Shown here piece after piece: positions 3,875 to 18,090 of a DNA stretch of 64,000 nt. The stretch spans positions 1 to 64,000 of the forward strand of contig JBAZTH010000002.1 of assembly GCA_041661965.1 (NCBI GenBank). Direction: 5' to 3'. Made by a program: the position numbers and the translations under genes. How positions within the stretch are numbered: the stretch's first letter is position 1; each line of letters starts with the position of its first letter. The notes beneath the pieces were generated by a model. That model was given only the letters and a program-made list of their open reading frames with translations. It was not told where the DNA came from and made no database searches. This DNA is from Candidatus Margulisiibacteriota bacterium. GTDB lineage: Bacteria > Margulisbacteria > WOR-1 > O2-12-FULL-45-9 > XYB2-FULL-48-7.

Positions 3875-3947
<73 letters not shown>

Positions 3948-3955
3948 AACCTTGG

Positions 3956-4029
3956 GGGCCCGTAGCTCAGTTGGATAGAGCAACGGATTTCTAATCCGTA
4001 GGTCGGAGGTTCGATCCCTCTCGGGCCCG
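3956..4029 (+). tRNA. tRNA-Arg (anticodon TCT)
   Basis: Acceptor GGGCCCG/CGGGCCC, anticodon stem ACGGA/TCCGT with loop TTTCTAA, T-loop TTCGATC. Confidence 0.9.
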
Positions 4030-4043
4030 TTTCCTATCCACAA

Positions 4044-4125
4044 GGGCGAGTGGTGGAACTGGCAGACACGCATGGCTTAGGACCATGTGCCGTAAGGCTT
4101 GGAGGTTCAAATCCTCTCTCGCCCA
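4044..4125 (+). tRNA. tRNA-Leu (anticodon TAG), class II with long variable arm
   Basis: Acceptor GGGCGAG/CTCGCCC, anticodon loop CTTAGGA, variable stem-loop GCC-GTAA-GGC, T-loop TTCAAAT. Confidence 0.85.
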
Positions 4126-4130
4126 TTTGA

Positions 4131-4215
4131 ATTATCGAGGCAGACACCCGGTTCTGCGCCGAAGGCGCATCCGCCTTTGGCGGAAACTCCTGTCCTCGGC
4201 ATATCCGTCTAGGTT
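4131..4215 (+). other. Structured intergenic element of three nested hairpins between tRNA-Leu and tRNA-Lys; unknown (tRNA remnant or small RNA?)
   Basis: CGAGGCAG...CTGTCCTCG outer pairing, GCGCC-GAA-GGCGC and CCGCC-TTTG-GCGG inner hairpins. No canonical cloverleaf. Confidence 0.2.
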
Positions 4216-4219
4216 TTAA

Positions 4220-5721
<1,502 letters not shown>

Positions 5722-6549: not shown

Positions 6550-6788
6550 GGAGGGCGCGGAGGAGGCAAAATATTACTCGATACCTCGAATATGATATTT
6601 TGCCGACGTAGCAGAGGGGCGCGAGCTACCTTAGAAGGCTTAGCGGCTCAAATGATGTATATCAGCGAACGACCCCTTGACAGGAAAGAAGAAAAAAATG
6701 CTATCATGAGAAAGCTGGAGAAAGAAAAAAAGGCATAAAAAGGCACAGCGAAAAGTGGCATTTAATTCGAAAGAGGCATAGAAGGCAA

Positions 6789-6950
6789 TATTGTATTCCG
6801 ATAGCGTCGATGCCGCCTCCGGCCCGCTGCGCGACCCTGCGGCGGAAGGGGATTTTTCGGCCGATCATAATAATAGGGCGGCTTGTCGGCAACATTCGTC
6901 GCCTCCAAGCCGCCCAACATCAGCGATGGTTCGCTGTAAAGGGAAAATGC
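6789..6950. repeat. IR-R: right copy of the perfect 162-bp inverted repeat
   Basis: Reverse complement of 4290-4451. Confidence 0.9.
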
Positions 6951-7092
6951 CTCGACCCTCTGGCTCTCAAACCATTCAGTGCCGCGCTAGCCAGCTGATT
7001 ATACCCAGCCCATTCATGGATGCCTTTGTCTTCTTCCCTCCCATAGCGGGCGCGTACATTCAGCCCCATTCAGATAGATGCGCGCCCGCTAT
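6951..7092 (-). promoter_or_regulatory. Cassette copy A: inverted promoter+leader (-10 TATAAT at 7003..6998, -35 AGGCAT at 7025..7020, minus strand) fused to a 12-bp-stem hairpin (7043-7092) upstream of parB-like gene 1
   Basis: Homologous to 12276-12460 and 17972-18090. The leader ends ...GGGTCGAGGCA exactly at the IR-R boundary. The hairpin is ATAGCGGGCGCG-N25-CGCGCCCGCTAT. Confidence 0.55.
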
Positions 7093-7165
7093 CGCCAGAA
7101 TATACTATAAAAACAATAAAATAGTTGTATAATAACTGTTAATTGTTATGCTTAGGAGGTCAACC

Positions 7166-8167
7166 ATGAAATACGACAGATTGCCCATCTCACAAATAGA
7201 ACTGGACAAAACAAACCCACGAATCGCACACTGGCTCAAGATGTACACCGATGTATCGCAAGAACAATTATATTTAGCCCTGGGCGTTGCAGAGCCCGGG
7301 AGTGCAGAGGCTGGCCCAAGTTTTTTCAGCTTAAAAGAAGCTATTAAAACAAATAATGGCGTTATTCATCCTATATTAGTGAATAAAAAAAGTAATGGGA
7401 AATATATGGTGATTGAAGGCAATACAAGATTAGCAATTTACATGGATTTTCAAAAAAATAAAGTGGATGGCGACTGGACAACAATACCTTGCATTATTCA
7501 TGAAAATTTAAGTGAGGCCCAAGTTGATGCAATAAGGCTACAAGCGCATTTAGTTGGTGTTCGTCAATGGCAACCATACGCAAAAGCAAGATACCTTAAA
7601 CATTTAAGGGATAGCGAGCATCTTACTTGGAATCAAGTTGTTGACTATTGTGGGGGAAAATCAAAGGAAAACCAAGAGTTGATCGCGGCATACGAAGACA
7701 TGGAGCAATATTACAGAAAAGTACTTGAAGACGATAGTTCATTTGACGAAACAAGATTTAGCGCTTTCGTTGAGCTACAGAAGCCAAGAATAAAGGAAGC
7801 AATTATTAATTCTGGAAACAACCTTAATGATTTTTCTATATGGGTCCGTGACAGGAAAATATCGAGGTTGGAAAACGTCAGGAGGCTCCCCGCAATATTG
7901 TCAGATAAACGAGCAAAAGAACTATTTATGACTAGAGGGGACAAAGCGGCCCTAGCGCTTATCGATTCGGCAATAATTCAAACCGACCAAAGCAGCCTGT
8001 CCTTGATACAGGTTGCCAAACTGCTTTCTGAGAAACTTAGGAAAATTAACTTCGAGGAAATCACAAGGTACAAAGAAGACGCATCCTCCCCTGAATTGGA
8101 AGCATTGCTAGAAACGAAAGATGAGCTGATCTCCTTTTCCAATTTAATCAAGGGGAGTGAGCAATAA
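7166..8167 (+). CDS. ParB/Srx-like N-terminal-domain protein (ParB-like nuclease/NTPase fold), copy 1
   Basis: IHPILVNKK...VIEGNTRLAIY matches the ParB/sulfiredoxin core (GxxR). RBS TAGGAGGT before ATG 7166. First gene of a 5-gene overlapping operon. Confidence 0.55.
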   Translation: MKYDRLPISQIELDKTNPRIAHWLKMYTDVSQEQLYLALGVAEPGSAEAGPSFFSLKEAIKTNNGVIHPILVNKKSNGKYMVIEGNTRLAIYMDFQKNKVDGDWTTIPCIIHENLSEAQVDAIRLQAHLVGVRQWQPYAKARYLKHLRDSEHLTWNQVVDYCGGKSKENQELIAAYEDMEQYYRKVLEDDSSFDETRFSAFVELQKPRIKEAIINSGNNLNDFSIWVRDRKISRLENVRRLPAILSDKRAKELFMTRGDKAALALIDSAIIQTDQSSLSLIQVAKLLSEKLRKINFEEITRYKEDASSPELEALLETKDELISFSNLIKGSEQ

Positions 8168-8579
8168 TTTGCCCGAATCGACTACGCATAAAACGCTGGT
8201 TGGCGCAATCGTAAAATGGGTACACAAATACTACAATGAAGAAATGATCTTATACGTCGATTCCGAAAACGCAATGTTCACCGACGAGCTCCCTCCCTCA
8301 ATAAACACTTGCAAGCCGGATGTATTTGCTCAAGGAAGAAAAAGTAAAAATATTGTTATTGGCGAAGCGAAAACAACCCAAATAGACCTGGAGTCCGATC
8401 ATTCAGAAATTCAATTTACCGCCTATTTAGAATACTGCAAAAAGAACAGCGATTGCAAATTGGTAGTTGCAACCCCGCTTAATATAATTAATTGCGCAAA
8501 ATCAATAATCGATGTGTTGAAGAAAAAGCTGCATTGTGAACAAGTCCACACAGAAATGATTAACCCATTATATTATTAA
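8157..8579 (+). CDS. Small PD-(D/E)xK-like nuclease-fold protein (140 aa)
   Basis: CKPDVF...NIVIGEAKT fits the PD-(D/E)xK core motif. GTG start overlaps the parB1 stop, suggesting translational coupling. Confidence 0.4.
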   Translation: MSNNLPESTTHKTLVGAIVKWVHKYYNEEMILYVDSENAMFTDELPPSINTCKPDVFAQGRKSKNIVIGEAKTTQIDLESDHSEIQFTAYLEYCKKNSDCKLVVATPLNIINCAKSIIDVLKKKLHCEQVHTEMINPLYY

Positions 8580-8582
8580 TTT

Positions 8583-10055
8583 ATGCAAATAATAAACCTT
8601 GACAAGGAGCCCAATATTAATCCAAAGTTCAAGGCTTTCCCATACCAAGATCAGGCCGTTAAGACCGTTTGCGACCTAGAATATGCTGCAATATTTCACG
8701 AACAAGGCCTTGGAAAATCAAAAATTGCAATTGATGTAATGCTCTATTGGCTAGAACATAAATACGTAGACACTGTATTATTTGTAGTCAAAAAGGGATT
8801 AATAAGCAATTGGCAAAAAGAGTTTTCTGCGCACAGCCATATTCGACCAAGATTAATCACTCAAAACAAAAGATCAAATTATTTCGCTTTTAATAGCCCT
8901 TCTCGCCTTATGATTACTCACTACGAAGCGATAAAAACAGAAAAAGAAAGATTTAAGTTGTTTCTCAAAACAAGGACCGTGGCCGTTATCCTGGACGAGT
9001 CAACAAAGATAAAAAATCACAAATCTGGAGTATCGAAAGCGCTATTCGAACTAGCCCCATTATTTCATAAAAGAATAATAATGACAGGACTGCCTGTGGC
9101 AAATCGACCATATGATATTTGGTCGCAAATATATTTTCTAGATCGTGGGATGAGTTTGGGAGATGCCTTTGATGAATTTAAGGCAAATACTGACCTTGAT
9201 AAGGGGTTAAAAGACTCTAAGAAGAGACAAGGGGCGTTCGAAGACTACTTATCCGATATTTTTAATAAAATATCAGGGTTTACCGTAAGAGAAACGAAAA
9301 GCAGTGGCGTCATTAAATTACCAGATAAAATATTTGAAAACATTATTACTTCTTGGGAGCCAAAACAATATGATTTGTATAGGGATATACGCGACAGCAT
9401 GAAGGCTATTGTGGTGAAGGAAGGCATCCCCCAAGAAGAAGACGCCGAGATGATCTTGAAAAGGTTATTACGATTGATTCAAATCGCATCCAACCCAAAA
9501 CTAGTAGACGAAAAATACTCAGAAGAGCCTGGTAAATGCCCATATTTATACGAGCTTGTTTTAAATATATGTCGGAAAAATGAAAAATGCATTGTATGGA
9601 CAACTTTTACTGAAAATGCTGACCAGTTATTTGTTTATCTCAAGGAATTTAACCCAAGAAAAGTGCACGGGAAAATGCCTATTGTCGATCGAAATTGCTC
9701 TATTGATGAATTTATTAAAGAGAAAGACGTGAAGGTGTTGATAGCCACCCCCGGAGCGGCTAAGGAGGGCTTAACATTAACGGTCGCGAATCATGCGATC
9801 TTTTATGATAGGTCCTTCAGCTTAGATGATTATTCTCAGGCCCAAGATAGAATCCATAGAATATCGCAAACAAAAAAGTGCTACGTGTACAATCTGATCA
9901 TGGAAGACTCTGTGGATTTATGGATAGATGCATTATTGCGGGCAAAAGAACTATCGGCAAAACTAACCCATGGAGATATATCGAAAGAATATTTTAGCAG
10001 CCAAATATCATATTCATTTATTGATATCTTCAAGGAAGCTCTGAACATTAAATAA
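8583..10055 (+). CDS. SNF2-family helicase (compact, 490 aa)
   Basis: Motifs: I GLGKSK, II ILDEST, III MTGLPVANRPYDIWSQIYFLD, VI QAQDRIHRISQTK. Confidence 0.85.
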   Translation: MQIINLDKEPNINPKFKAFPYQDQAVKTVCDLEYAAIFHEQGLGKSKIAIDVMLYWLEHKYVDTVLFVVKKGLISNWQKEFSAHSHIRPRLITQNKRSNYFAFNSPSRLMITHYEAIKTEKERFKLFLKTRTVAVILDESTKIKNHKSGVSKALFELAPLFHKRIIMTGLPVANRPYDIWSQIYFLDRGMSLGDAFDEFKANTDLDKGLKDSKKRQGAFEDYLSDIFNKISGFTVRETKSSGVIKLPDKIFENIITSWEPKQYDLYRDIRDSMKAIVVKEGIPQEEDAEMILKRLLRLIQIASNPKLVDEKYSEEPGKCPYLYELVLNICRKNEKCIVWTTFTENADQLFVYLKEFNPRKVHGKMPIVDRNCSIDEFIKEKDVKVLIATPGAAKEGLTLTVANHAIFYDRSFSLDDYSQAQDRIHRISQTKKCYVYNLIMEDSVDLWIDALLRAKELSAKLTHGDISKEYFSSQISYSFIDIFKEALNIK

Positions 10056-10069
10056 CAGGGGGGCTGGTC

Positions 10070-11071
10070 ATGAAAAAAGATGTTTTTACAAAAGACTATA
10101 TAACAATCAGTGGAAAAGAGATAGAAGTTGAATCTGGGTTCATCAATCATGAAAAGCTTAAATATTACGCGGATAATCCTAGGATATATTCGATTATATA
10201 TGCGGGAGAAAAATCGCTTAGCCAAAACGAAATAGAAGAAAGGCTATCCGACAAAGAACATGTTCGTTTATTGATTCAATCGATAAAGGCAAATGGAGGG
10301 TTGACCGACCCCATTATTGTCAGAGGTGGGGACTTTGTTGTGTTAGAAGGAAATAGCCGATTAGCTGCTTATAGAACTTTATCAAAAAAGGACCCTATCC
10401 AGTGGGGAAAGATAAAATGCAAGATTCTCCCTCATGATATAAGTAACGATCTGGTGTTCACCCTTTTAGGCGAATATCATATAATTGGGAGAAAGGATTG
10501 GCAGCCATATGAACAGGCTGGCTATCTATATAGAAGGCATAAGCTTCAAAAGGTCTCCTTAGAGAAGATACAGCACGAATTAGGCTTAAAGAAAAGCGAA
10601 ATGGAACATCTCGTTGAAGTATATGAGTTTATGTTTACCCACAACGACACAGACATAAATCATTGGAGTTATTATGAGGAATATCTTAAATCAAGAGACA
10701 TTAGCAGGGCAAGAGAAACACATAGTGATTTCGATCATTCAATTGTTTGTAAGATCAAAGTCGGCGAAATCACTAAAGCCATAGATATCAGAGATAAATT
10801 AGTCCCCATTTCAAAATCAACCCCCAAAATAATAAAAGGATTCATTTCTGGCAAAATCAAATTTGAGGATGCTTACGAGAGAGCATATGCCGGGGGTGCT
10901 GGGAATGCGGTGTTTGAAAAATTGCATAGATTCCGAGAGTGGCTAGCTAATTCAAGTATCGAAGAGGATATTATTGATAATGGGGATCAGCTAGTTAAAA
11001 AGTGCATATTTGAGCTCGGAAAGATTAGTAAGCGCTCGGACGATATTCTGAATAAAATTAATAAGACATGA
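10070..11071 (+). CDS. ParB/Srx-like N-terminal-domain protein, copy 2
   Basis: DPIIVRGGDFVVLEGNSRLAAYRT is a ParB-like core. A paralog of 7166-8167 (shared EGN(T/S)RLA motif). Confidence 0.55.
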   Translation: MKKDVFTKDYITISGKEIEVESGFINHEKLKYYADNPRIYSIIYAGEKSLSQNEIEERLSDKEHVRLLIQSIKANGGLTDPIIVRGGDFVVLEGNSRLAAYRTLSKKDPIQWGKIKCKILPHDISNDLVFTLLGEYHIIGRKDWQPYEQAGYLYRRHKLQKVSLEKIQHELGLKKSEMEHLVEVYEFMFTHNDTDINHWSYYEEYLKSRDISRARETHSDFDHSIVCKIKVGEITKAIDIRDKLVPISKSTPKIIKGFISGKIKFEDAYERAYAGGAGNAVFEKLHRFREWLANSSIEEDIIDNGDQLVKKCIFELGKISKRSDDILNKINKT

Positions 11072-12171
11072 CAAAGAAAAAAATATTGTTAGTTGAGCCA
11101 AATTTCCCAATACCCGCCAAGAGTAAAAATCATAGGGACTTTTTACCAATCGGGCTACTTAAGCTCGCGAGCTATCATAGGGATAAGGGAGATGTCATTA
11201 AGTTAGTTAGGGGTAATCAATATTTTGATGATTTTTATCCGAATCAGATAAAAATTACATCTTTATTTACGTATTGGTCAAAATATGTATGGGAAAGCGT
11301 CAAATATTATAAAGAGACCTATCCAAAGGCAAAAGTTATTGTTGGCGGCATCTATGCGTCCTTAATGCCGGAACACTGCAAGCAATCGGGATGCGATGAA
11401 GTATTTATTGGGGTAAATGAAAAGGTTGAGAAATTTCGCCCAGCTTATGAACTAGTTAACGTCGATTATCAAATTATTCATACTTCACGGGGCTGTCTGA
11501 GACGATGTGCGTTTTGTGGAACTTGGAGGATAGAGCCCCGCTTCACTCATAAAAAGAGTATTAAAGACGAGATATGTAGTAATCGAATTATATTCTATGA
11601 TAACAATTTATTGGGAAACCCCTTTATTAAAGATATTTTAAAAGAACTAATGAATGCGAAGCATAATGGAAGAGTGGTGTATTCTGAGAGCCAGTGCGGA
11701 ATTGATGGGAGATTGCTTACCCCAGAAATAGCAAAGATGCTTAAACAGGCCAGGTTTATTAACCCTAGAATTGCATGGGACCATGGTTATAATCAATGGA
11801 AGCTAATTAAGAAGCAGATCAAAATGCTTGTTGCTGCTGGATATCCGGCAAAAGATATCTATGTGTTTATGCTTTACAATCACGAGCATGATTATCGTGA
11901 GATGCTAACAAAGATAAGACGATGTAAGAGTTGGGGAGTGCAAATATCTGATTGTAGATATCGCCCATTAGACCAAATCTCTGAAAGTTATTACCCCCGG
12001 AGGGAACAGACCAGCGAAGAATATTATATACATCCTAAATGGACAGACAAACAAATAAAAATGTTTCGAAGAAGCGTTAGAAGGCAGAATATTGAAGTAC
12101 GACATGGTTTCTCCCATTACAGCGAAGAACTTGAACGCTTGGGAAAGAATAGTTCAAAAATCACAGCTTAA
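11068..12171 (+). CDS. Radical SAM enzyme with an N-terminal B12-binding-like domain
   Basis: CLRRCAFCG gives the Cx3Cx2C radical-SAM cluster motif. The N-terminal ~130 aa (LLVEPNFPIPAK...LPIGLLKLASY...VIVGG) resemble a cobalamin-binding Rossmann domain. Start overlaps the parB2 stop (ATGA). Confidence 0.75.
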   Translation: MTKKKILLVEPNFPIPAKSKNHRDFLPIGLLKLASYHRDKGDVIKLVRGNQYFDDFYPNQIKITSLFTYWSKYVWESVKYYKETYPKAKVIVGGIYASLMPEHCKQSGCDEVFIGVNEKVEKFRPAYELVNVDYQIIHTSRGCLRRCAFCGTWRIEPRFTHKKSIKDEICSNRIIFYDNNLLGNPFIKDILKELMNAKHNGRVVYSESQCGIDGRLLTPEIAKMLKQARFINPRIAWDHGYNQWKLIKKQIKMLVAAGYPAKDIYVFMLYNHEHDYREMLTKIRRCKSWGVQISDCRYRPLDQISESYYPRREQTSEEYYIHPKWTDKQIKMFRRSVRRQNIEVRHGFSHYSEELERLGKNSSKITA

Positions 12172-12199
12172 AAGCGCCCCTTGTATGGGCATATATCAA

Positions 12200-12460
12200 G
12201 AAGCGGTTTTTTCGACGTATGGGGGAGAAAAAACCGCTTCTTTGACAAGCTCACATCCTGTGTAGGTCTTTTTTCTTGCATCCATGAATGGTGTTGGGTA
12301 TAATCAGAGTGATTGCCCGGCACTGAATGGTTTGAGAGCCAGAGGGTCGAGGCAATTCTCTCTCTTCTATTGCCGATGGCCTTTAGCCTTCGCCCCACCC
12401 CTCTCCCTCCCCAGCGGGCACGAACATTCAAGCCCCATTCAGATAGATGCGCGCCCGCTG
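12200..12460 (+). promoter_or_regulatory. Cassette copy B: hairpin (12200-12240), TTGACA (12242-12247), near-consensus sigma70 promoter (TTGCAT 12276-12281, 17 bp, TATAAT 12299-12304), ~50-nt leader ending GGGTCGAGGCA (12354), hairpin 12412-12460
   Basis: All elements read directly. Homologous to copies A and C. Sits ~115 bp upstream of the 1233-aa helicase gene. Confidence 0.6.
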
Positions 12461-12573: not shown

Positions 12574-15500
12574 ATGACAATCTCTAATCTACAATTTCAT
12601 AGTAAGACATTGAGACACTCCTCTAACCCCAACGATTACGCCCTATACCGAGCAGCACTTGAATGGGACTTAATGGAGCCCATTGTAATCGAAAATCGTG
12701 AAGATATAAGGTCAGAAACTAAATGGCATGACCGGCTCGAACCCTATCACCATCAAGTCACCAATTTAATGACATTTTGTCGCCGACTCCCAGTAACATT
12801 GCTTGCTGACGATGTTGGGTTAGGAAAAACCATAAGTGCCGGCCTGGTAATGAGCGAATTAATATCTCGCGGGAGAATATCTAAAATACTAATCGTTTGC
12901 CCAAAGCTACTAATGCCTCAATGGCGAGAAGAACTCGACCTAAAATTCGGAATCCCTTCAATTGAAGCTGTCGGAAGCAAACTTGTTAAAGCTAAACCCC
13001 CAGACGACGCTGGGGCAGTTATAACAACTTACCATTCAGCGCGTTTACATTTTGACGCACTTGCCAAAGTTGGATATGAAATGCTTATCCTTGATGAAGC
13101 ACATAAACTTCGTAATCTATATGGAGTAGATCCTACTCCTCAAGTCGCGTTGCGTTTTCGAAAAGCATTAGCAGATAGACTGTTTAAATATGTTCTTATG
13201 CTTACTGCCACCCCTATTCACAATAGGCTTTGGGACCTTTATTCATTAATTGATTTATTAACCGTCGCTCGTGGGCACGAGAATCCGTTTGGAAGCGAAG
13301 GCATTTTTGCCAGGAAATATATTGCTGATGGTCGCACTCAAGCAAGACAGTTAAAGGTTGAAAGGAAAGACGAATTCCGCTCTATTGTTTATAGTTACAT
13401 GTCTAGAGTAAGGCGCGCAGATGCAAAGCTATATTTTCCGGAAAGGGTCGTTGAGCTTCATAAAGTTGATCCGACCAAAGAAGAACTTGAATTAATAGAT
13501 ATTATTGCTAAACCAATACAAAAGCTTAACCGACTTGCTCAAATCTCTATTCTTCAGGCATTAATAAGCAGTCCCCATGCTTTAGCGGCCCAATTAAATA
13601 CAATGGCTCGTAAGGGGACAGTATCAGAGTTACTAGCCAAAGCCGTACAAGCAGTTGTTGATCGGATGCCGATAACTGCTAAATTAAACGGCCTAAATGT
13701 CTTAGTTGAAAAACTTAGAAAAGAACAGCCCGAGCATTGGCGAATGATTGTATTTACTTGTCGCAGAGAGACACAAATAACAATCCAAGATTTCCTTGAA
13801 TCTCGGGGAATATCATGCGGTCTAATAAACGGGGAATCAGGCCCACGAAATCAAACTACCATTGCTAAATTAAAAACGATTCCTCCAGAAATACATGTAA
13901 TTATTTCCACCGAAGCCGGCTCTGAAGGCGTTAATTTACAAGCAGCTAATGTGTTAATCAATTATGATTTACCCTGGAATCCGATGATCGTTGAGCAACG
14001 AATAGGACGAATTCAGAGGCTAGCCTCGAAGCATGCAAGCGTATGCATTTTTAATATTATATTACAAGGCACTTTTGAGGAATATATTGTTGGAAGACTC
14101 ATGGAAAAGCTGCAGCTGGCCGCACATGCCATTGGAGATGTAGAAGCCTTATTAGAAGCCTCCAATTTAGATGATAATGAAGAGGATGTCTCTACCAGTT
14201 TTGAGGAAAAAATCCGGCGCCTTGTTATAGCCTCTTTGGCCGGAAAAGACGTTGAGCTTGAAGCACGTTCAGCTGCTAATAGTATTGCTGAAGCGAAAAA
14301 AGAATTAGAGCGAGAAGAAAACAATATAAATTCATTGTTAGGCGGAATGGACGACGAATTTTCTGGGCCTAGATGCCCGAGGTTGCCTCGTCAAACGCAA
14401 TCAATGGATGCCCGCAATTTTGTATTGTCCGCCTTGGCTTCTCAAGGGATGCGATTGTCTCCTATTTCAAATGGATTATATTCGGCCGAATCTGGGAGAG
14501 AAAAAGAAGTAATTCGTTTTGATCACAACGAAGTAATAGGAGTAAGAAGTACTTTATATGCGCCGGGATCATCCTCCTTTGAACGTTTAGTAAGCGGAAT
14601 CACGTATGATGGGTGGCATCGAGTCGAAGATATTGACACTAATCCGTTGAAAATAGCGGAAGAACTATGCGTTAACTGGGCGAATAGTTTTGGTAGCACA
14701 TATAAAACAGTAACTACCAAGGAAATAGTTCGTTGTTTTAACGGCACCGCACTAATGAGGGTTAGGGCAACTGTGGCTCATGATGGATATGAACGGCTCG
14801 TTGAAGTTGATTGTACCCCAAGTGAGCATTTTAGTGGCGCGTCTAAAAAATGGCTAGACCCAATAAATGAGATAATTGAAAATCCTACTTCTGTTGGTTT
14901 AATTACGGACAAATTAAATGAAAAGGCGATCTCTGATCCTAGCATCTCGGAATTTTGCCGATTCTACACCGAAAGAAGGACACAAGAAATGAATGCGGCA
15001 GGAGATGATGCTCGCAAAAGGAAGAAACTTGAGGATGATTTTACACCAAGACTGGAGTTATCGTTGGTGGGGCTTAATGGAAAGATGCATCGTAGATTAG
15101 TAATAGATGTGACTTATCAATTAGACCCGGGATTTGAGTATACAAGCATGCTGGCACTAACTCCGTCAACAGCCGAGATTAATAAGGGCCCCGATATGGA
15201 CAAGTGTATGAAGACGGGCCGAGTTGTCCCCCGCGACTGCCTGGACAAGTGCGTTATTAGCAATACTCGGGTGATGAAACACTTACTTACTCCATCAGAA
15301 CTGAGTGGCAGATTGGCCCTTCCTGAACATATTGTTATTTGTTCTTTAAGTAATAAACGAGTCTTAATCGATGAAGTTGAGAAATCAGCAATCACCGATC
15401 AATATGTTACTAAATCCTTGCTTAAAACGTCATCCATGAGCGGCAAAAGAGCGGAACCACAATTCTTCTCTAGATGTGAGTTTAGCAACTCTGAAGTTCT

Positions 15501-16275
15501 TGAGAATGAGATAGCAATTAGCCAAATATCTGGCAAACGCTATCGCATTGATGAGCAATTACACTCCGCAGTCTCAGGCAAAACCGGACATCGCGAAGAA
15601 TTCATTTATTGTTCGGAAACGGGTAAGCCCCTATTATCAGATGAAGCGGAAAGATGTGAAGTGACAGGAAAGACCGTTATGCCTGGGTTGCTTGAGAGAT
15701 GCGAAATAACAGGGAAGAAAGTATTAGCTTCGGAACTTGATAAAAGTGCAGTTACGGGCAAAAAGGCGCTAAAAAAATACTTTGTTCTAAGTAGCCTATC
15801 AGAAGCACATCTTCTTGAACAGGAAGCTATAAAATCTGTTGCGGGCAAATTTTGCTCCCCGTTAGAAGCTAAATCATGCTTCTGGAGTGGCCGTCAATGT
15901 CACCCCGATGATTTGCGTGTGTGTGAATTAACTGGCATACCAATATATTTTGAATTTGCATCAAATGGGGGGGCTGTTCAGCTCGAACCCTTAGTGAATC
16001 TTCTCAATGGGGTTAATAAAAAGGCAGATAAAGCTGATCTCTGGCAAACTATTGCAATAGAAGCCTCTAAGTTAGTTGGCGGGGGAAACTGTAAGGTCGA
16101 GGCGGCAGAGTTATCCCCAGATAAGCATTGTTTAGCCATTTCATTAGAAATCCGGACATGGCTAGGTTTTAAATTGAGACAAGCAGGATTATTATATTCT
16201 CTGGCAGACAACTCTGTGTCAGGCCGAGTAGTAATTGGCAAACGTGATAATAAAGGCTGGAGGTTTATAAGTTAA
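12574..16275 (+). CDS. Large SNF2-family helicase (1233 aa) with a ~650-aa C-terminal extension containing degenerate (S/T)GK repeats
   Basis: GLGKT (motif I), LILDEAHKLRN (II), LTATPIHNRLWDLYSLIDLL (III), QRIGRIQRLAS (VI). C-terminal repeats of ~15-17 aa (VSGKTGH, ETGKPLL, VTGKTVM, ITGKKVL, VTGKKAL, VAGKFCS). Confidence 0.85.
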   Translation: MTISNLQFHSKTLRHSSNPNDYALYRAALEWDLMEPIVIENREDIRSETKWHDRLEPYHHQVTNLMTFCRRLPVTLLADDVGLGKTISAGLVMSELISRGRISKILIVCPKLLMPQWREELDLKFGIPSIEAVGSKLVKAKPPDDAGAVITTYHSARLHFDALAKVGYEMLILDEAHKLRNLYGVDPTPQVALRFRKALADRLFKYVLMLTATPIHNRLWDLYSLIDLLTVARGHENPFGSEGIFARKYIADGRTQARQLKVERKDEFRSIVYSYMSRVRRADAKLYFPERVVELHKVDPTKEELELIDIIAKPIQKLNRLAQISILQALISSPHALAAQLNTMARKGTVSELLAKAVQAVVDRMPITAKLNGLNVLVEKLRKEQPEHWRMIVFTCRRETQITIQDFLESRGISCGLINGESGPRNQTTIAKLKTIPPEIHVIISTEAGSEGVNLQAANVLINYDLPWNPMIVEQRIGRIQRLASKHASVCIFNIILQGTFEEYIVGRLMEKLQLAAHAIGDVEALLEASNLDDNEEDVSTSFEEKIRRLVIASLAGKDVELEARSAANSIAEAKKELEREENNINSLLGGMDDEFSGPRCPRLPRQTQSMDARNFVLSALASQGMRLSPISNGLYSAESGREKEVIRFDHNEVIGVRSTLYAPGSSSFERLVSGITYDGWHRVEDIDTNPLKIAEELCVNWANSFGSTYKTVTTKEIVRCFNGTALMRVRATVAHDGYERLVEVDCTPSEHFSGASKKWLDPINEIIENPTSVGLITDKLNEKAISDPSISEFCRFYTERRTQEMNAAGDDARKRKKLEDDFTPRLELSLVGLNGKMHRRLVIDVTYQLDPGFEYTSMLALTPSTAEINKGPDMDKCMKTGRVVPRDCLDKCVISNTRVMKHLLTPSELSGRLALPEHIVICSLSNKRVLIDEVEKSAITDQYVTKSLLKTSSMSGKRAEPQFFSRCEFSNSEVLENEIAISQISGKRYRIDEQLHSAVSGKTGHREEFIYCSETGKPLLSDEAERCEVTGKTVMPGLLERCEITGKKVLASELDKSAVTGKKALKKYFVLSSLSEAHLLEQEAIKSVAGKFCSPLEAKSCFWSGRQCHPDDLRVCELTGIPIYFEFASNGGAVQLEPLVNLLNGVNKKADKADLWQTIAIEASKLVGGGNCKVEAAELSPDKHCLAISLEIRTWLGFKLRQAGLLYSLADNSVSGRVVIGKRDNKGWRFIS

Positions 16276-16277
16276 AC

Positions 16278-17825
16278 ATGAATGAGAATTATATTACGAA
16301 GACTAGATATCGAGAAGGGTTATTATGTCCAATATTACTGTGGCATAAGATTCACGAGCCAACAAAAGTTCCACAACCTGACCCTTTCGCAAGAATTAAA
16401 ATTGAAGGCGGGATTCAAGTCGGTATATTGGCAAGAAAATTATTTCCTGATGGCCTTCTTATCGAAAAAGAGACGTCGGCAATACTAACCCATGAAAAAT
16501 CGCTAAAAGCACTACAATTGCGAAAGCCATTATTTGAGGCAGGGTTTATCTATAATCATGCATATGCATTAGCAGACATATTAATCCCAGCAGAAGACAA
16601 CTCATGGGATTTACTCGAAGTAAAAGCAGAAAATTCGATTGATGAGAAAGATTATTGCTGTTTGAGTGAGAGCTTTAACCTTGATTGTGCTGACGTTGCA
16701 TTTCAGAAATATACATATACTAAAGCCGGCATAAATATTAGAAATTCTAATATCCTACATCTTAATAAGAAATACATTTATGATGGCAAAAAACTATTAT
16801 TAGAAAAGCTCTTTATTACCCCTGAAAAAGTGAATGACCCTAAAATCAAATTGATTGTACATGATGAGATTGATCGCCACCTCCCCCTTGTCGAAGCCAA
16901 TATAAATAAACTTGAGGAAATATTACAAAACAATGCTCGCCCTAAAACCATATTTAACAGAAATTGCAAGAAATGCGTATTGTACGACGAATGCTCCAAT
17001 ATCTTACCACCCGATCATGTTCTAATGCTAAGAAGGGATATGAAAGGCATTCGCTTCCAAATGCTGGAAAAGGGAATCACAAAATTATCAGACATCCCAA
17101 TAACTTCCGAGATAAAAGACCAAAAGATTGAACAAATTAATGCACATAAGACTGGAACAACATTAATTAAAACCAAGAATATTAGGGAATTTATAGACAA
17201 AATTGAATACCCCGCATATTTTCTAGATTTTGAAACAATTGACCCTGCCATCCCTATCTTTGAGAAAACACATTCATATCAAAAGATCCCATTCCAATAT
17301 TCATTGCATATAATAAAGAAGCACGGGGAAAAAGCAGAACATCATAGCTATTTAGCCAAAGGGGATGTTGATCCCAGGCCCGAATTATTGTCCCAGCTTA
17401 AAGCACTATTGGGCGATAGGGGCTCAATAATAACCTATAACGCTAAATTTGAAAGAGGTAGATTAAAAGAGGCGTCTGAAGACTTTCCAGAATATAGTGA
17501 TTGGTTTAATAATAATATTAATGGGCGCATAATTGATTTAGAAGAACCTTTCGATAAGTTCTTTTACTATGATCCCAAACAAAAAGGCAGTACATCTATT
17601 AAAGCTATTTTACCCGTATTAACTGATTGCAGCTATGAGGGGTTGGAAATATGCGAAGGGGGTACTGCCGCCGCTGAATATATTAGGGTTACTTTTAATA
17701 GTGTCGATGAAAAAGACAAAGAAAATGTTCGGAATCATCTGGAAATATATTGCAAGCAAGACACACAAGCTATGATAGATATACTGGAAAGATTAGAACA
17801 AATAGCCGCTGACAATACAAAATAA
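16278..17825 (+). CDS. DUF2779-like protein: Cas4/RecB-type PD-(D/E)xK nuclease region with Cys cluster plus C-terminal DnaQ-like exonuclease region
   Basis: CPILLWHK...CxxC cysteines and the YPAYFLDFETID motif (DEDD-like exonuclease) recalled from DUF2779 family members. 2 bp downstream of the helicase stop. Confidence 0.45.
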   Translation: MNENYITKTRYREGLLCPILLWHKIHEPTKVPQPDPFARIKIEGGIQVGILARKLFPDGLLIEKETSAILTHEKSLKALQLRKPLFEAGFIYNHAYALADILIPAEDNSWDLLEVKAENSIDEKDYCCLSESFNLDCADVAFQKYTYTKAGINIRNSNILHLNKKYIYDGKKLLLEKLFITPEKVNDPKIKLIVHDEIDRHLPLVEANINKLEEILQNNARPKTIFNRNCKKCVLYDECSNILPPDHVLMLRRDMKGIRFQMLEKGITKLSDIPITSEIKDQKIEQINAHKTGTTLIKTKNIREFIDKIEYPAYFLDFETIDPAIPIFEKTHSYQKIPFQYSLHIIKKHGEKAEHHSYLAKGDVDPRPELLSQLKALLGDRGSIITYNAKFERGRLKEASEDFPEYSDWFNNNINGRIIDLEEPFDKFFYYDPKQKGSTSIKAILPVLTDCSYEGLEICEGGTAAAEYIRVTFNSVDEKDKENVRNHLEIYCKQDTQAMIDILERLEQIAADNTK

Positions 17826-17905
17826 ACATCCAATATATAAGTAACTATATGCTGTCGTAATCTTTTCGGAGGAATTCAAATATAACATTAGTCGGCAAAT
17901 TAATA

Positions 17906-18090
17906 AGCAGTTTTTTCGACGCATGGGGGAGAAAAAAATGATTATTTGACAAATTATTGCCTATTCAGGTCTTTTTTTCATCCATGGTGTTGGGTATAAT
18001 CATTGAGATAGCCCCCGGCGCTGAATGGTCTGATGATCATCGGGTCGAGGCATTTTTCTCTTCTATCGCCTTCTGCCTTCGCCTTTAGCT
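17906..18090 (+). promoter_or_regulatory. Cassette copy C: degenerate version of B (TTGACA 17946-17951, TATAAT 17995-18000, weakened -35, leader to 18052), with no gene downstream
   Basis: Aligned by eye to copy B. Small deletions in the -35 region; the tail hairpin is absent. Confidence 0.5.

Follow-up and report, generated by a model that had tools for sequence, protein, structure and literature searches.

In the Dpd system, DpdA needs ATP hydrolysis by the ParB-fold protein DpdB to modify DNA, and in the Ssp system the ParB-fold protein SspE reads phosphorothioate and nicks DNA (PMC10164549). The operon described here, at positions 7166–12171 of the window (the whole 64,000-nucleotide stretch of DNA that was analysed), places two ParB/Srx-fold proteins, a small nuclease and an SNF2 ATPase next to a radical SAM enzyme (rSAM). 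Among rSAM defence systems, our literature search found only the viperins and Ophion (OpnABC), and it found no description of this gene set. We propose that the operon may be a two-module modification–restriction defence system of Dnd/Dpd-like design arranged around the rSAM, a reading that we favour but to which we give a little less than an even chance. That it combines modification with restriction we infer from its genomic setting and by analogy with DpdA/DpdB, SspE and Dnd.

The five genes all lie on the + strand of one low-GC island, and each abuts or overlaps the next, as a preliminary description of the operon had stated. ParB1, the cassette's upstream paralog, is encoded at 7166–8167 in a frame open from 7148 (333 residues from ATG 7166); this ATG is the likely start because AGGAGG lies 7 nucleotides upstream of it. 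The GTG start of the nuclease gene (8157–8579; 140 residues) falls inside the end of the ParB1 gene, an overlap of 11 nucleotides. The SNF2 gene (8583–10055; 490 residues) and the ParB2 gene (10070–11071; 333 residues) follow after gaps of 3 and 14 nucleotides, and the ParB2 stop and the rSAM start share an ATGA at 11068–11071 that translationally couples ParB2 to the rSAM gene (11068–12171; 367 residues). The upstream control region (7035–7165, + strand) reads as a copy of an inter-cassette repeat and, 3′ of it, an AT-rich stretch that contains TGTATAAT and a Shine–Dalgarno motif and presumably carries the promoter. Just 3′ of the rSAM stop is a perfect hairpin with a 16-bp stem (12198–12242, + strand), a member of repeat family D1 without a canonical terminator T-tract. 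The transcription unit likely ends at this hairpin, with which a repeated inter-cassette element begins. The copies of this element at 7035–7090 and 12404–12459 are 91% identical.

Domain searches bear out the earlier calls of two paralogous ParB/Srx proteins, a mini PD-(D/E)xK nuclease and an SNF2 ATPase. ParB1 matches Pfam ParB_N with an E value of 3e-4 (21.2 bits, under the gathering cut-off of 26.3), and a Pfam search with ParB2 gave no match. The two are 33% identical across 125 residues (E = 6e-17) and keep the NPR and EGN(T/S)R motifs of the NTP pocket (EGNTR in ParB1); N36-P37-R38 and G94-N95-x-R97, the box I NPR and box II GxxR, are invariant in the family. Judged by fold and by the box I/II motifs, ParB1 and ParB2 can be assigned to the ParB/Srx superfamily with confidence. 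Their family profile also aligns with a group of ~330-residue ParB proteins that partner rSAMs at other loci (hhalign probability 97%, 276 columns), one member of which has a precomputed PF02195 match. ParB2 matches phrog_3694 (1.4e-15), and both proteins partially match PDC-M38A in PADLOC (ParB1, 9e-8; ParB2, 6e-12); membership in PDC-M38 was rejected because they cover only 57–230 of its 715 positions and the other components are unmatched. The 8157–8579 product belongs to the PD-(D/E)xK superfamily by its restriction-endonuclease-like fold and its PD...(D/E)xK motif, and resembles the FokI/BspD6I type rather than the Mrr type, as a stand-alone catalytic subunit. The 8583–10055 product, a minimal ATPase/translocase without extra domains, can be placed in the SNF2 family by both Pfam lobes (SNF2-rel_dom, 80.8 bits against a cut-off of 24.9, E = 1.2e-22; Helicase_C, 61.2 bits against 23.5, E = 1.3e-16) and by intact motifs I, II and VI (GLGKS, DESTKIKN and QAQDRIHRISQ).

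The fifth product, the conserved hub of the system family, carries a CxxxCxxC [4Fe-4S]/SAM motif in a partial TIM barrel behind an N-terminal B12-binding-like Rossmann domain. The preliminary description had called it a cobalamin-type enzyme; the rSAM assignment and the B12-binding-like domain stand, whereas the ‘B12’ label holds at the level of fold only, leaving cobalamin use putative. The N-domain matches Pfam B12-binding weakly (23.5 bits, under the cut-off of 32.1), and the fold matches both B12 users (MgmA, CysS and TsrM) and non-users (AprD4, RimO and MiaB); the closest folds include MiaB and RimO, which modify nucleic acid and the ribosome. The enzyme is basic (pI 9.55) and has extra invariant cysteines (C104, C109 and C296). 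It lacks a variable target-recognition region, so any sequence specificity would need to come from its partners. No NCBIfam model matched it above cut-off, and PDB sequence searches with the profiles of the rSAM, of the partner family C2 and of an HD-domain partner returned nothing significant. Across phyla, rSAM identity reaches 75–81%, and conservation of 52–69% identity compares with 26–43% for its partners. The family comprises ~2250 clusters at 90% identity, occurs with at least six partner architectures and gave 3 matches in IMG/VR versus at least 484 in metagenome contigs; members of its core clade come mostly from strict anaerobes and uncultured archaea.

The surroundings agree with the earlier view of a mobile island. 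GC content is 37–42% in the island versus ~54% in the flanks, and a large serine recombinase outside the operon (4258–5721, − strand; Resolvase, Recombinase and Zn_ribbon_recom matches) abuts a tRNA-Lys (4220–4292) beside the island; a tRNA-derived direct repeat was looked for at the far island end and none was found. The setting is that of a defence island. A downstream SNF2–DUF2779 pair was considered as part of the cassette's system and rejected, as it is not conserved with the cassette at other loci.

The five-gene cassette is a recurrent unit and not a chance arrangement. In blastp and phmmer comparisons of the window proteins with the first loci only the rSAM matched; an alignment-based metagenome scan then revealed the conservation. 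The ParB–nuclease–SNF2–ParB block adjoins an rSAM-family gene in each of the 27 loci that were counted, one of them in the window. The co-occurrence elsewhere of rSAM, ParB and SNF2 genes, on which the preliminary description made its reading depend, is thus borne out. Eighteen of the 27, on metagenome contigs, alphaproteobacterial plasmids and IMG/VR contigs, were checked gene by gene. By seed, the loci with block and rSAM include 6 that were rSAM-seeded, 8 of 8 nuclease-seeded, 3 on plasmids and 5 of 5 ParB-seeded in IMG/VR, where contig L118 has no more than a weak rSAM match (E = 8e-12). Another 4 plasmid records, of which two come from one Mesorhizobium strain, have ParB2 and rSAM matches ~2 kb apart. 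The five-gene order of the window is repeated in L060, L063, L091, L074, L103–105 and L111–113, and a subgroup orthologous to ParB1 is present in every cassette. The block stands beside a deeply diverged rSAM on IMG/VR contigs and on plasmids of Rhizobium, Mesorhizobium, Roseomonas and Bradyrhizobium; the Rhizobium block is 42–53% identical to that of the window, whereas the Rhizobium rSAM is only 26% identical. Dependence runs in one direction, as ~85 of 99 rSAM-seeded loci lack the block but no copy of the block was found that lacked an rSAM. The unit is better described as two exchangeable modules, an rSAM hub and the ParB–nuclease–SNF2–ParB block.

That the rSAM has many alternative partner sets went unnoticed in the first reading of the sequence. 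These partners include GHKL ATPases, ParB proteins fused with either a REase domain of DpnII/MboI type or a HEPN-like Rx4H domain (the latter also fused to GHKL partners), an HD protein and a DndD/PbeC-like ATPase. One GHKL partner has an N-domain of the BbrUII/HgiDII restriction-enzyme type (6e-28). In methanogen loci L006, L010 and L098, PbeA helicases and SMC-like DndD/PbeC ATPases adjoin the rSAM, and in ~24 loci HsdMSR or Type III Mod/Res genes do so. A PADLOC scan of 127 flanking proteins gave counts per model only, with matches to Type I S and M, Type III M, PbeA and mad5. Plasmid-clade loci have a gene that overlaps the start of the rSAM gene and encodes a DGQHR protein (TIGR03187, 2e-44) that is DpdB-like (1.5e-17; 62.7 bits against a DpdB cut-off of 300). 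Comparisons by hhalign among the small nuclease family (C9), the C2, C8 and C14 partners and the HEPN-like C-terminal domain found no mutual relation.

In the mechanism that we propose, ParB2 of the writer module would act as an NTP-dependent ParB-fold clamp that loads or positions the basic rSAM on host DNA, the presumed substrate. The rSAM would then place a radical-derived mark on this DNA, the putative chemistry being C-methylation if the N-domain binds cobalamin and another C–H functionalization if it does not. In the reader/restriction module, ParB1 would scan DNA for the mark and, upon meeting unmarked (foreign) DNA, would engage the SNF2 translocase and the FokI/BspD6I-like PD-(D/E)xK subunit for cleavage, giving the operon its predicted anti-phage function. 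There are several lines of support for modification plus restriction. First, block and rSAM go together in all loci counted and in both rSAM clades, and the asymmetric dependence of the block on the rSAM would be expected if the block were a restriction module, toxic unless accompanied by its modifier. Second, a slowly evolving rSAM with fast-evolving partners and shuffled modules follows the pattern in which methyltransferases are conserved and restriction enzymes evolve fast. Finally, the restriction-type alternative partners, the DpdB-like DGQHR protein of the plasmid clade taken with the DpdA/DpdB and SspE precedents, the basic charge and MiaB/RimO-like fold of the rSAM, and the rarity of its family in viral contigs all count in the same direction.

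Other observations fit less well. We know of no rSAM of this class that acts on DNA, and to our knowledge none of the known class B or B12-like rSAMs and methylthiotransferases acts on DNA or sits in restriction–modification contexts. HEPN-like domains are usually RNases, so the HEPN-like effectors of some partners are a poor match to DNA restriction. The HD-domain partner recalls the nucleotide chemistry of OxsA/OxsB and counts against DNA marking. The absence of a variable target-recognition region from the rSAM, and loci L074 and L114, where the rSAM and ParB2 genes are not transcribed together, likewise tell against the proposal. Viperins and OxsB, in which an rSAM converts nucleotides, are the model for an alternative that we regard as unlikely, in which the rSAM would act on a free (d)NTP to yield an analogue that is toxic or terminates chains, the ParB-fold and GHKL proteins would be nucleotide-binding sensors or NTPases, and the nuclease and helicase would form a second effector arm.

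Several loci lie on ICEs or plasmids, making a role in mobile-element conflict possible, and other ParB/Srx proteins act in plasmid conflicts. The cassette might thus serve its carrier island, ICE or plasmid, modifying the element's DNA against host restriction or excluding rivals, a proposal to which we attach a similarly low probability. It would account for the serine recombinase beside the window copy, for locus L001 amid TraG/TrbI conjugation genes, for plasmid copies that include conjugative Rhizobium plasmids and for the solitary distant rSAM homologs of Marinitoga camini virus 1 and other phages. Mobile location discriminates poorly, however, because most defence systems also ride mobile elements. 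Moreover, IMG/VR contains hardly any members of the core rSAM family, many copies sit on chromosomes between housekeeping and restriction–modification genes, and pure anti-restriction is hard to square with a nuclease and a translocase.

Less probable again is RNA-directed abortive infection, in which the rSAM would modify tRNA or rRNA by MiaB/RimO-like chemistry and the HEPN and PD-(D/E)xK domains would attack RNA or DNA upon infection. The position of MiaB and RimO among the top structural matches of the rSAM, the fusion of HEPN-like Rx4H domains to ParB or GHKL partners and the frequent proximity of rSAM loci to Type I and III restriction–modification genes, which recalls the location of PrrC and RloC beside Type I genes (PMC3710099), are all in its favour. 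By contrast, the window cassette has no HEPN domain; its nuclease is of the REase fold and is accompanied by an SNF2 DNA translocase and two ParB-fold proteins presumed to bind DNA, and the DGQHR/DpdB-like and DndD/PbeC-like partners elsewhere point to DNA. Last, it is highly improbable that block and rSAM are two unrelated, non-cooperating systems set side by side: defence islands do juxtapose independent systems, and the rSAM is on the opposite strand in L074 and, in L114, lies upstream together with GHKL and C2 partners of its own, in neither case co-transcribed with ParB2, but the 27/27 co-occurrence across rSAM clades that are mutually only 26% identical and hosts from Ignavibacteria to Rhizobiales, together with the ATGA coupling in the window, argues strongly against this.

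Returning to modification–restriction, we tentatively suggest a stronger version, which we consider possible but distinctly less than evenly balanced. The conserved enzyme would be the first rSAM, possibly cobalamin-dependent, to write on DNA, providing a C–H-derived self-label (for example, C-methylation of an unactivated base or sugar carbon) for a large, modular restriction family mostly of anaerobes with a diverged Rhizobiales-plasmid branch, and NTP-driven DNA clamps of ParB, GHKL or SMC type would both bring in the writer and recognize the mark. If so, radical SAM chemistry would join the epigenetic self-marks of prokaryotic immunity, and there would be an undiscovered modification of DNA (or of nucleic acid). 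Screens in aerobic model hosts would miss this family, since its core clade resides mainly in strict anaerobes and uncultured archaea, but the plasmid versions in Rhizobium leguminosarum WSM1325, Mesorhizobium NZP2077 and Roseomonas mucosa make the question testable in cultured bacteria. More broadly, the family is a natural experiment in module swapping, in which one conserved rSAM is joined to various candidate clamps (ParB, GHKL/MORC-like or DndD-like) and effectors (HEPN, REase, HD or PD-(D/E)xK).

Searches of the five proteins against Pfam, NCBIfam, PHROGs and PADLOC assigned the set to no described system, in line with the preliminary description, which had also held that the rSAM is not a component of any known defence system (zero PADLOC matches) and that the Dpd and Dnd core proteins are missing from the operon (PADLOC and NCBIfam). 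ZorD is an SNF2 protein fused to an Mrr-like PD-(D/E)xK nuclease; the window likewise pairs SNF2 with a nuclease, but as a separate, FokI/BspD6I-like gene immediately 5′. Matches of the window SNF2 in defence models are limited to the generic helicase cores of ZorD (the best PADLOC match, 2e-44), DpdE and DrmD, far under NCBIfam cut-offs (74 bits against 1500 for ZorD). Zorya membership was rejected, as the helicase core alone matches and ZorABC are absent from the island, and among systems with ZorD, DrmD or BrxHI helicases the window also lacks the DISARM and BREX partners. Like viperins and Ophion, the candidate locus has an rSAM at the heart of a putative anti-phage locus; those enzymes are viperin-like without a B12-like domain and in Ophion have PHP and PRTase partners, features that set them apart from the window. 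Relative to class B and B12-like enzymes (MgmA/QCMT, TsrM, CysS, TokK and AprD4) and to MiaB/RimO, the window rSAM is much shorter, at 367 residues.

The Dnd, Ssp and Pbe systems share with the window the use of ParB-fold proteins, of which DndB is a regulator and SspE both reads the modification and nicks, and DndD/PbeC ATPases and PbeA helicases neighbour the rSAM at methanogen loci; the window SNF2 N-terminus itself matches PbeA weakly (1.4e-5). However, equivalents of DndA/C/E, SspABCD and PbeB/D are missing, and the rSAM stands where DndC would be, with no sulfur-mobilizing enzyme. Membership was rejected, the DndACDE, SspABCD and PbeABCD core proteins being undetected in the operon. Membership in Dpd was likewise rejected because its defining parts, DpdA, DpdC and a DGQHR-type DpdB, are absent: no operon protein matched DpdA or DpdC in PADLOC or NCBIfam, neither window ParB matched the DpdB/DGQHR models of these collections at E ≤ 0.01, and the SNF2 scores 24 bits against a DpdE cut-off of 500. 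Thus, TGT-like DpdA, DpdC and the preQ0 pathway are lacking, and the predicted writer is instead an rSAM. A true DGQHR protein, DpdB-like, occurs in the plasmid variant only. The two designs nevertheless have much in common, as each couples a ParB-fold NTPase genetically to a DNA-modifying enzyme (both activities being predicted here), has an SNF2-like helicase (DpdE-type in Dpd) in its restriction part, resides on an island, and relies on a conserved writer without a variable target-recognition domain.

The five-gene cassette at window positions 7166-12171 is a real conserved unit, and it quite likely serves in defence or conflict, with its radical SAM enzyme (rSAM) functionally coupled to the preceding ParB-nuclease-SNF2-ParB block. 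The five-ORF operon first claimed in a preliminary description is borne out at every position, with all genes on the + strand: ParB1 (7148/7166-8167), a PD-(D/E)xK nuclease (8157-8579), an SNF2 ATPase (8583-10055), ParB2 (10070-11071) and rSAM (11068-12171). Gene 1 probably starts at ATG 7166, because an AGGAGG lies 7 nt upstream. The overlaps in that description are also present, with the GTG start of gene 2 lying 11 nt inside gene 1 and the start of gene 5 in an ATGA overlap with the gene 4 stop; the remaining junctions are 3 and 14 nt, and the rSAM stop is followed by a perfect hairpin with a 16-bp stem. The proposed mobile-island setting holds as well, as the operon lies in a stretch of 37-42% GC (about 7-18 kb) in a window of ~54% GC.

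Upstream, four closely spaced tRNA genes (3875-4292; Gly(TCC), Arg(TCT), Leu(TAG) and Lys(CTT)) follow an H+-pyrophosphatase gene, and the island begins directly past the last of the four, tRNA-Lys (4220-4292). The tRNAs are separated from the operon by a DprA-like gene and by a large serine recombinase gene on the minus strand (4258-5721). Both, along with a 62-aa ORF, are bracketed by an inverted repeat (4290-4507 and 6734-6950), perfect over 162 nt and 96% identical over 220 nt, that begins at the tRNA-Lys 3' end. It may be either an invertible segment, serving as a phase switch beside the candidate defence operon, or a fold-back in the assembly. Directly downstream of the five-gene cassette (cassette 1) is a two-gene cassette 2 (12574-17825, + strand), which encodes a 1233-aa SNF2 helicase, with a DrmD/BrxHI-like core and a ~700-aa C-terminal region without matches, and a 515-aa DUF2779 protein with weak Cas4/RecB-like matches. 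Cassette 2 is not conserved beside the five-gene cassette in other loci and is therefore probably a candidate defence pair in its own right; a DUF2779-like neighbour occurs at one rSAM locus (L033). Three copies of an intergenic repeat (~180-270 nt, 75-91% identical) are found before cassette 1 (6945-7090), between the cassettes (12195-12460) and after cassette 2 (17899-18070), the first with an 80-nt piece inverted relative to the others. The repeat, which contains a promoter-like TTGCAT...TATAAT stretch, might act as a promoter common to the cassettes or as a recombination site bounding exchangeable cassettes.

The SNF2 assignment is unambiguous, with Pfam SNF2-rel_dom and Helicase_C above cut-off and motifs I, II and VI intact in translation. 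The protein has no accessory domain, and in PADLOC/NCBIfam it is matched best by the ZorD, DpdE and DrmD helicase cores, all far below the family cut-offs. The two ParB-like proteins, ~333 aa each, are paralogous as originally described (E 6e-17 to one another). Pfam ParB_N gives a marginal match to ParB1 and none to ParB2; in a 12-member family alignment, which resolves into two orthologous subgroups, one per cassette position, both keep the box I (NPR) and box II (EGN[T/S]R) ParB motifs. Their family profile aligns at 97% probability with the ~330-aa ParB partners of rSAM at other loci. The rSAM has an identical database copy in an Ignavibacteriaceae MAG, and its structure model contains low-confidence loops near the cluster-binding motif. 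Beyond CxxxCxxC, it carries C104, C109, C286 and C296, three invariant and one nearly so among 27 homologs; these could ligate an auxiliary Fe-S cluster or zinc.

More broadly, the rSAM is a hub that is combined with varying neighbour genes. Its family comprises about 2250 homolog clusters (211 representatives at 50% clustering have E < 1e-30), and the enzyme is 75-81% identical across Ignavibacteria, Omnitrophota, Elusimicrobia, Zixibacteria, Atribacterota and Nanoarchaeota. Its commonest partners are a GHKL ATPase and C2, a ~330-aa protein. In a second set, a GHKL protein is fused to a ~160-aa domain with an Rx4H (HEPN-like) motif and has an N-domain match to the BbrUII/HgiDII restriction-enzyme family (6e-28); in a third, ParB is fused to that ~160-aa domain or carries a DpnII/MboI REase domain instead. 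The fourth set pairs ParB with a ~500-aa HD-like protein, the fifth, in methanogens, consists of a PbeA-like helicase, a PbeC/DndD-like ABC ATPase and a small protein, and the sixth is the window's four-gene block. In about 24 loci, rSAM adjoins HsdMSR or Type III Mod/Res genes, and DpnI, OLD, Mrr and RadC genes are also found nearby. Methyl-directed restriction genes of the DpnI type (DpnI and DpnI_C domains) adjoin three rSAM loci (L102, L105 and L010). C2, encoded between GHKL and rSAM (L016, L003, L012 and others), has conserved LPG..A.D and (F)PYD(I/V)xNLDFCG motifs and matches only the PP_RS20740 family, faintly.

Several of these partners bear on other readings of the system. The ~500-aa gene upstream of rSAM (L001, L021, L026, L028, L053 and L083) looks like an HD-domain phosphohydrolase/nuclease because its H...HD...H...HD...D motifs are invariant; searches of Pfam, NCBIfam and PDB sequences gave no match. 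Its association with rSAM is reminiscent of the paired proteins OxsA(HD) and OxsB(B12-rSAM). A factory for nucleotide analogues, of the viperin or OxsB type, would accommodate this partner and has nucleotide-directed precedents in viperins and Ophion, but the DNA-clamp and REase partners of rSAM and the distances between folds speak against it, and we consider it unlikely. We also doubt that these loci encode a mobile-element weapon or counter-defence, a role that would be consistent with their presence on ICEs and plasmids and with the occurrence of solitary rSAM homologs in phages. IMG/VR contains almost none of the core family, with 3 matches versus at least 484 in metagenome contigs. The phage homologs are distant (22-32% identity; phrog_9298), lack ParB or GHKL partners, occur in Marinitoga camini virus 1 (L107; KP836355.1 37383-38465) and in Bacteroides and Clostridium phages, and are reminiscent of orphan phage modification enzymes.

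The ~160-aa C-terminal domain is common to ParB fusions (L011, L019, L036, L047 and L048) and GHKL fusions (L014, L022, L037, L043, L045 and L051), as judged by an hhalign probability of 97.7%. It bears the Pfam label AF_1680 and a conserved R-x4-H motif ('RxxCAHPT') of the kind typical of HEPN RNases; in L008 and L075, the DpnII/MboI REase domain stands in its place. These HEPN partners, the MiaB/RimO-like fold of rSAM and an analogy to PrrC/RloC would fit an RNA-directed abortive system, but the window's own set consists of REase, SNF2 and ParB proteins, making such a system improbable here.

Coupling of rSAM to the block is supported by searches from several starting points. When 99 loci around rSAM homologs were gene-called (by crude ORF calls) and clustered, the ParB-nuclease-SNF2-ParB-rSAM order was identical in L060, L063 and L091 and partial in L093 and L082; in L074, the block is intact and divergently oriented to rSAM. 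A nuclease-seeded search yielded 214 homolog clusters, and the block accompanied rSAM in all eight contigs sampled, including one with the order GHKL-C2-rSAM-ParB-nuclease-SNF2-ParB (L114) and one degraded copy (L102). In the latter (8857-11055), ParB2 is broken into 77+256 aa and rSAM into 195+155 aa, and ParB1, nuclease and SNF2 are apparently intact. This locus may be a decaying system, and its apparently intact nuclease arm would be unexpected if the block is a restriction module, unless likewise inactivated. Block and rSAM also co-occur in 5/5 ParB-seeded IMG/VR contigs, with only a weak rSAM match in L118. By tblastn, blocks 42-53% identical to the window's were found on plasmids of Rhizobium leguminosarum WSM1325 (pR132505), R. 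sophoriradicis, Mesorhizobium NZP2077, Roseomonas mucosa and Bradyrhizobium, beside a 543-aa rSAM with only 26% identity to the window's enzyme; this rSAM is followed by a GHKL ATPase and is usually preceded by a DGQHR protein. Seven-gene relatives of this kind, in which the DGQHR protein is DpdB-like, are carried by plasmids of cultured alphaproteobacteria (L106, NC_012854.1 13.3-21.6 kb; L108, L109 and L115-L119) and have only generic RefSeq annotation; the R. leguminosarum locus adds a second GHKL and a PIN-like protein on the opposite strand. Overall, the block lies beside an rSAM-family member in 27/27 loci counted, window included (18 inspected gene by gene; four plasmid records, two from the same strain, by match coordinates), which contradicts mere adjacency and renders it highly implausible. 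The dependence is one-way: many partner sets accompany rSAM, and in these 27 loci the block is never without it.

Between the window and other cassettes, identity is 52-69% for rSAM, 38-43% for SNF2, 28-34% for the ParBs and 26-35% for the nuclease. The closest relative of the window's block is a Rhizobium block and that of its rSAM (81%) is in a Velamenicoccus ParB-HD-rSAM locus, and thus modules have been exchanged. A very slowly evolving rSAM, fast-evolving and swappable NTPase/nuclease partners and restriction-modification surroundings together form the signature of a modification gene with restriction partners. ParB-fold proteins fill both of the roles needed in known systems: DpdA requires ATP hydrolysis by DpdB for DNA modification, and SspE, a ParB-fold NTPase, senses phosphorothioate and nicks DNA (PMC10164549). 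These precedents and the modification-gene signature lead us to a writer/reader assignment, in which ParB2 and rSAM would form the writer, and ParB1, SNF2 and the PD-(D/E)xK subunit would form the reader and restriction arm. This specific model, built by analogy, is tentative. The rSAM chemistry would be C-methylation if cobalamin is bound, with the extra cysteines allowing for an auxiliary cluster; the likelihood that this chemistry is categorically new is considerable, if less than even. We rate the operon as a modification-restriction-type island system whose class of writer is unprecedented.

Against models of known systems, HMM searches with the operon proteins gave only partial matches or matches far below cut-off and assigned the set to none of them, in keeping with the initial suggestion that the partners defining Dpd and Dnd are missing; PADLOC and NCBIfam detect no DpdA, DpdC or DndACDE in the operon. 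PADLOC (2023 release) has no model for rSAM, the nuclease, C2 or the HD partners, and a full-text literature search found no description of the five-gene set. Membership in Dpd, Dnd/Ssp or Zorya is ruled out by the absence of DpdA, DpdC, DndACDE, SspABCD and ZorABC. In its working, the operon is most like Dpd or Dnd/Ssp, with a ParB-fold helper/reader, SNF2-type helicases and a conserved writer, and its nuclease and SNF2 together resemble a split ZorD-like nuclease-helicase.
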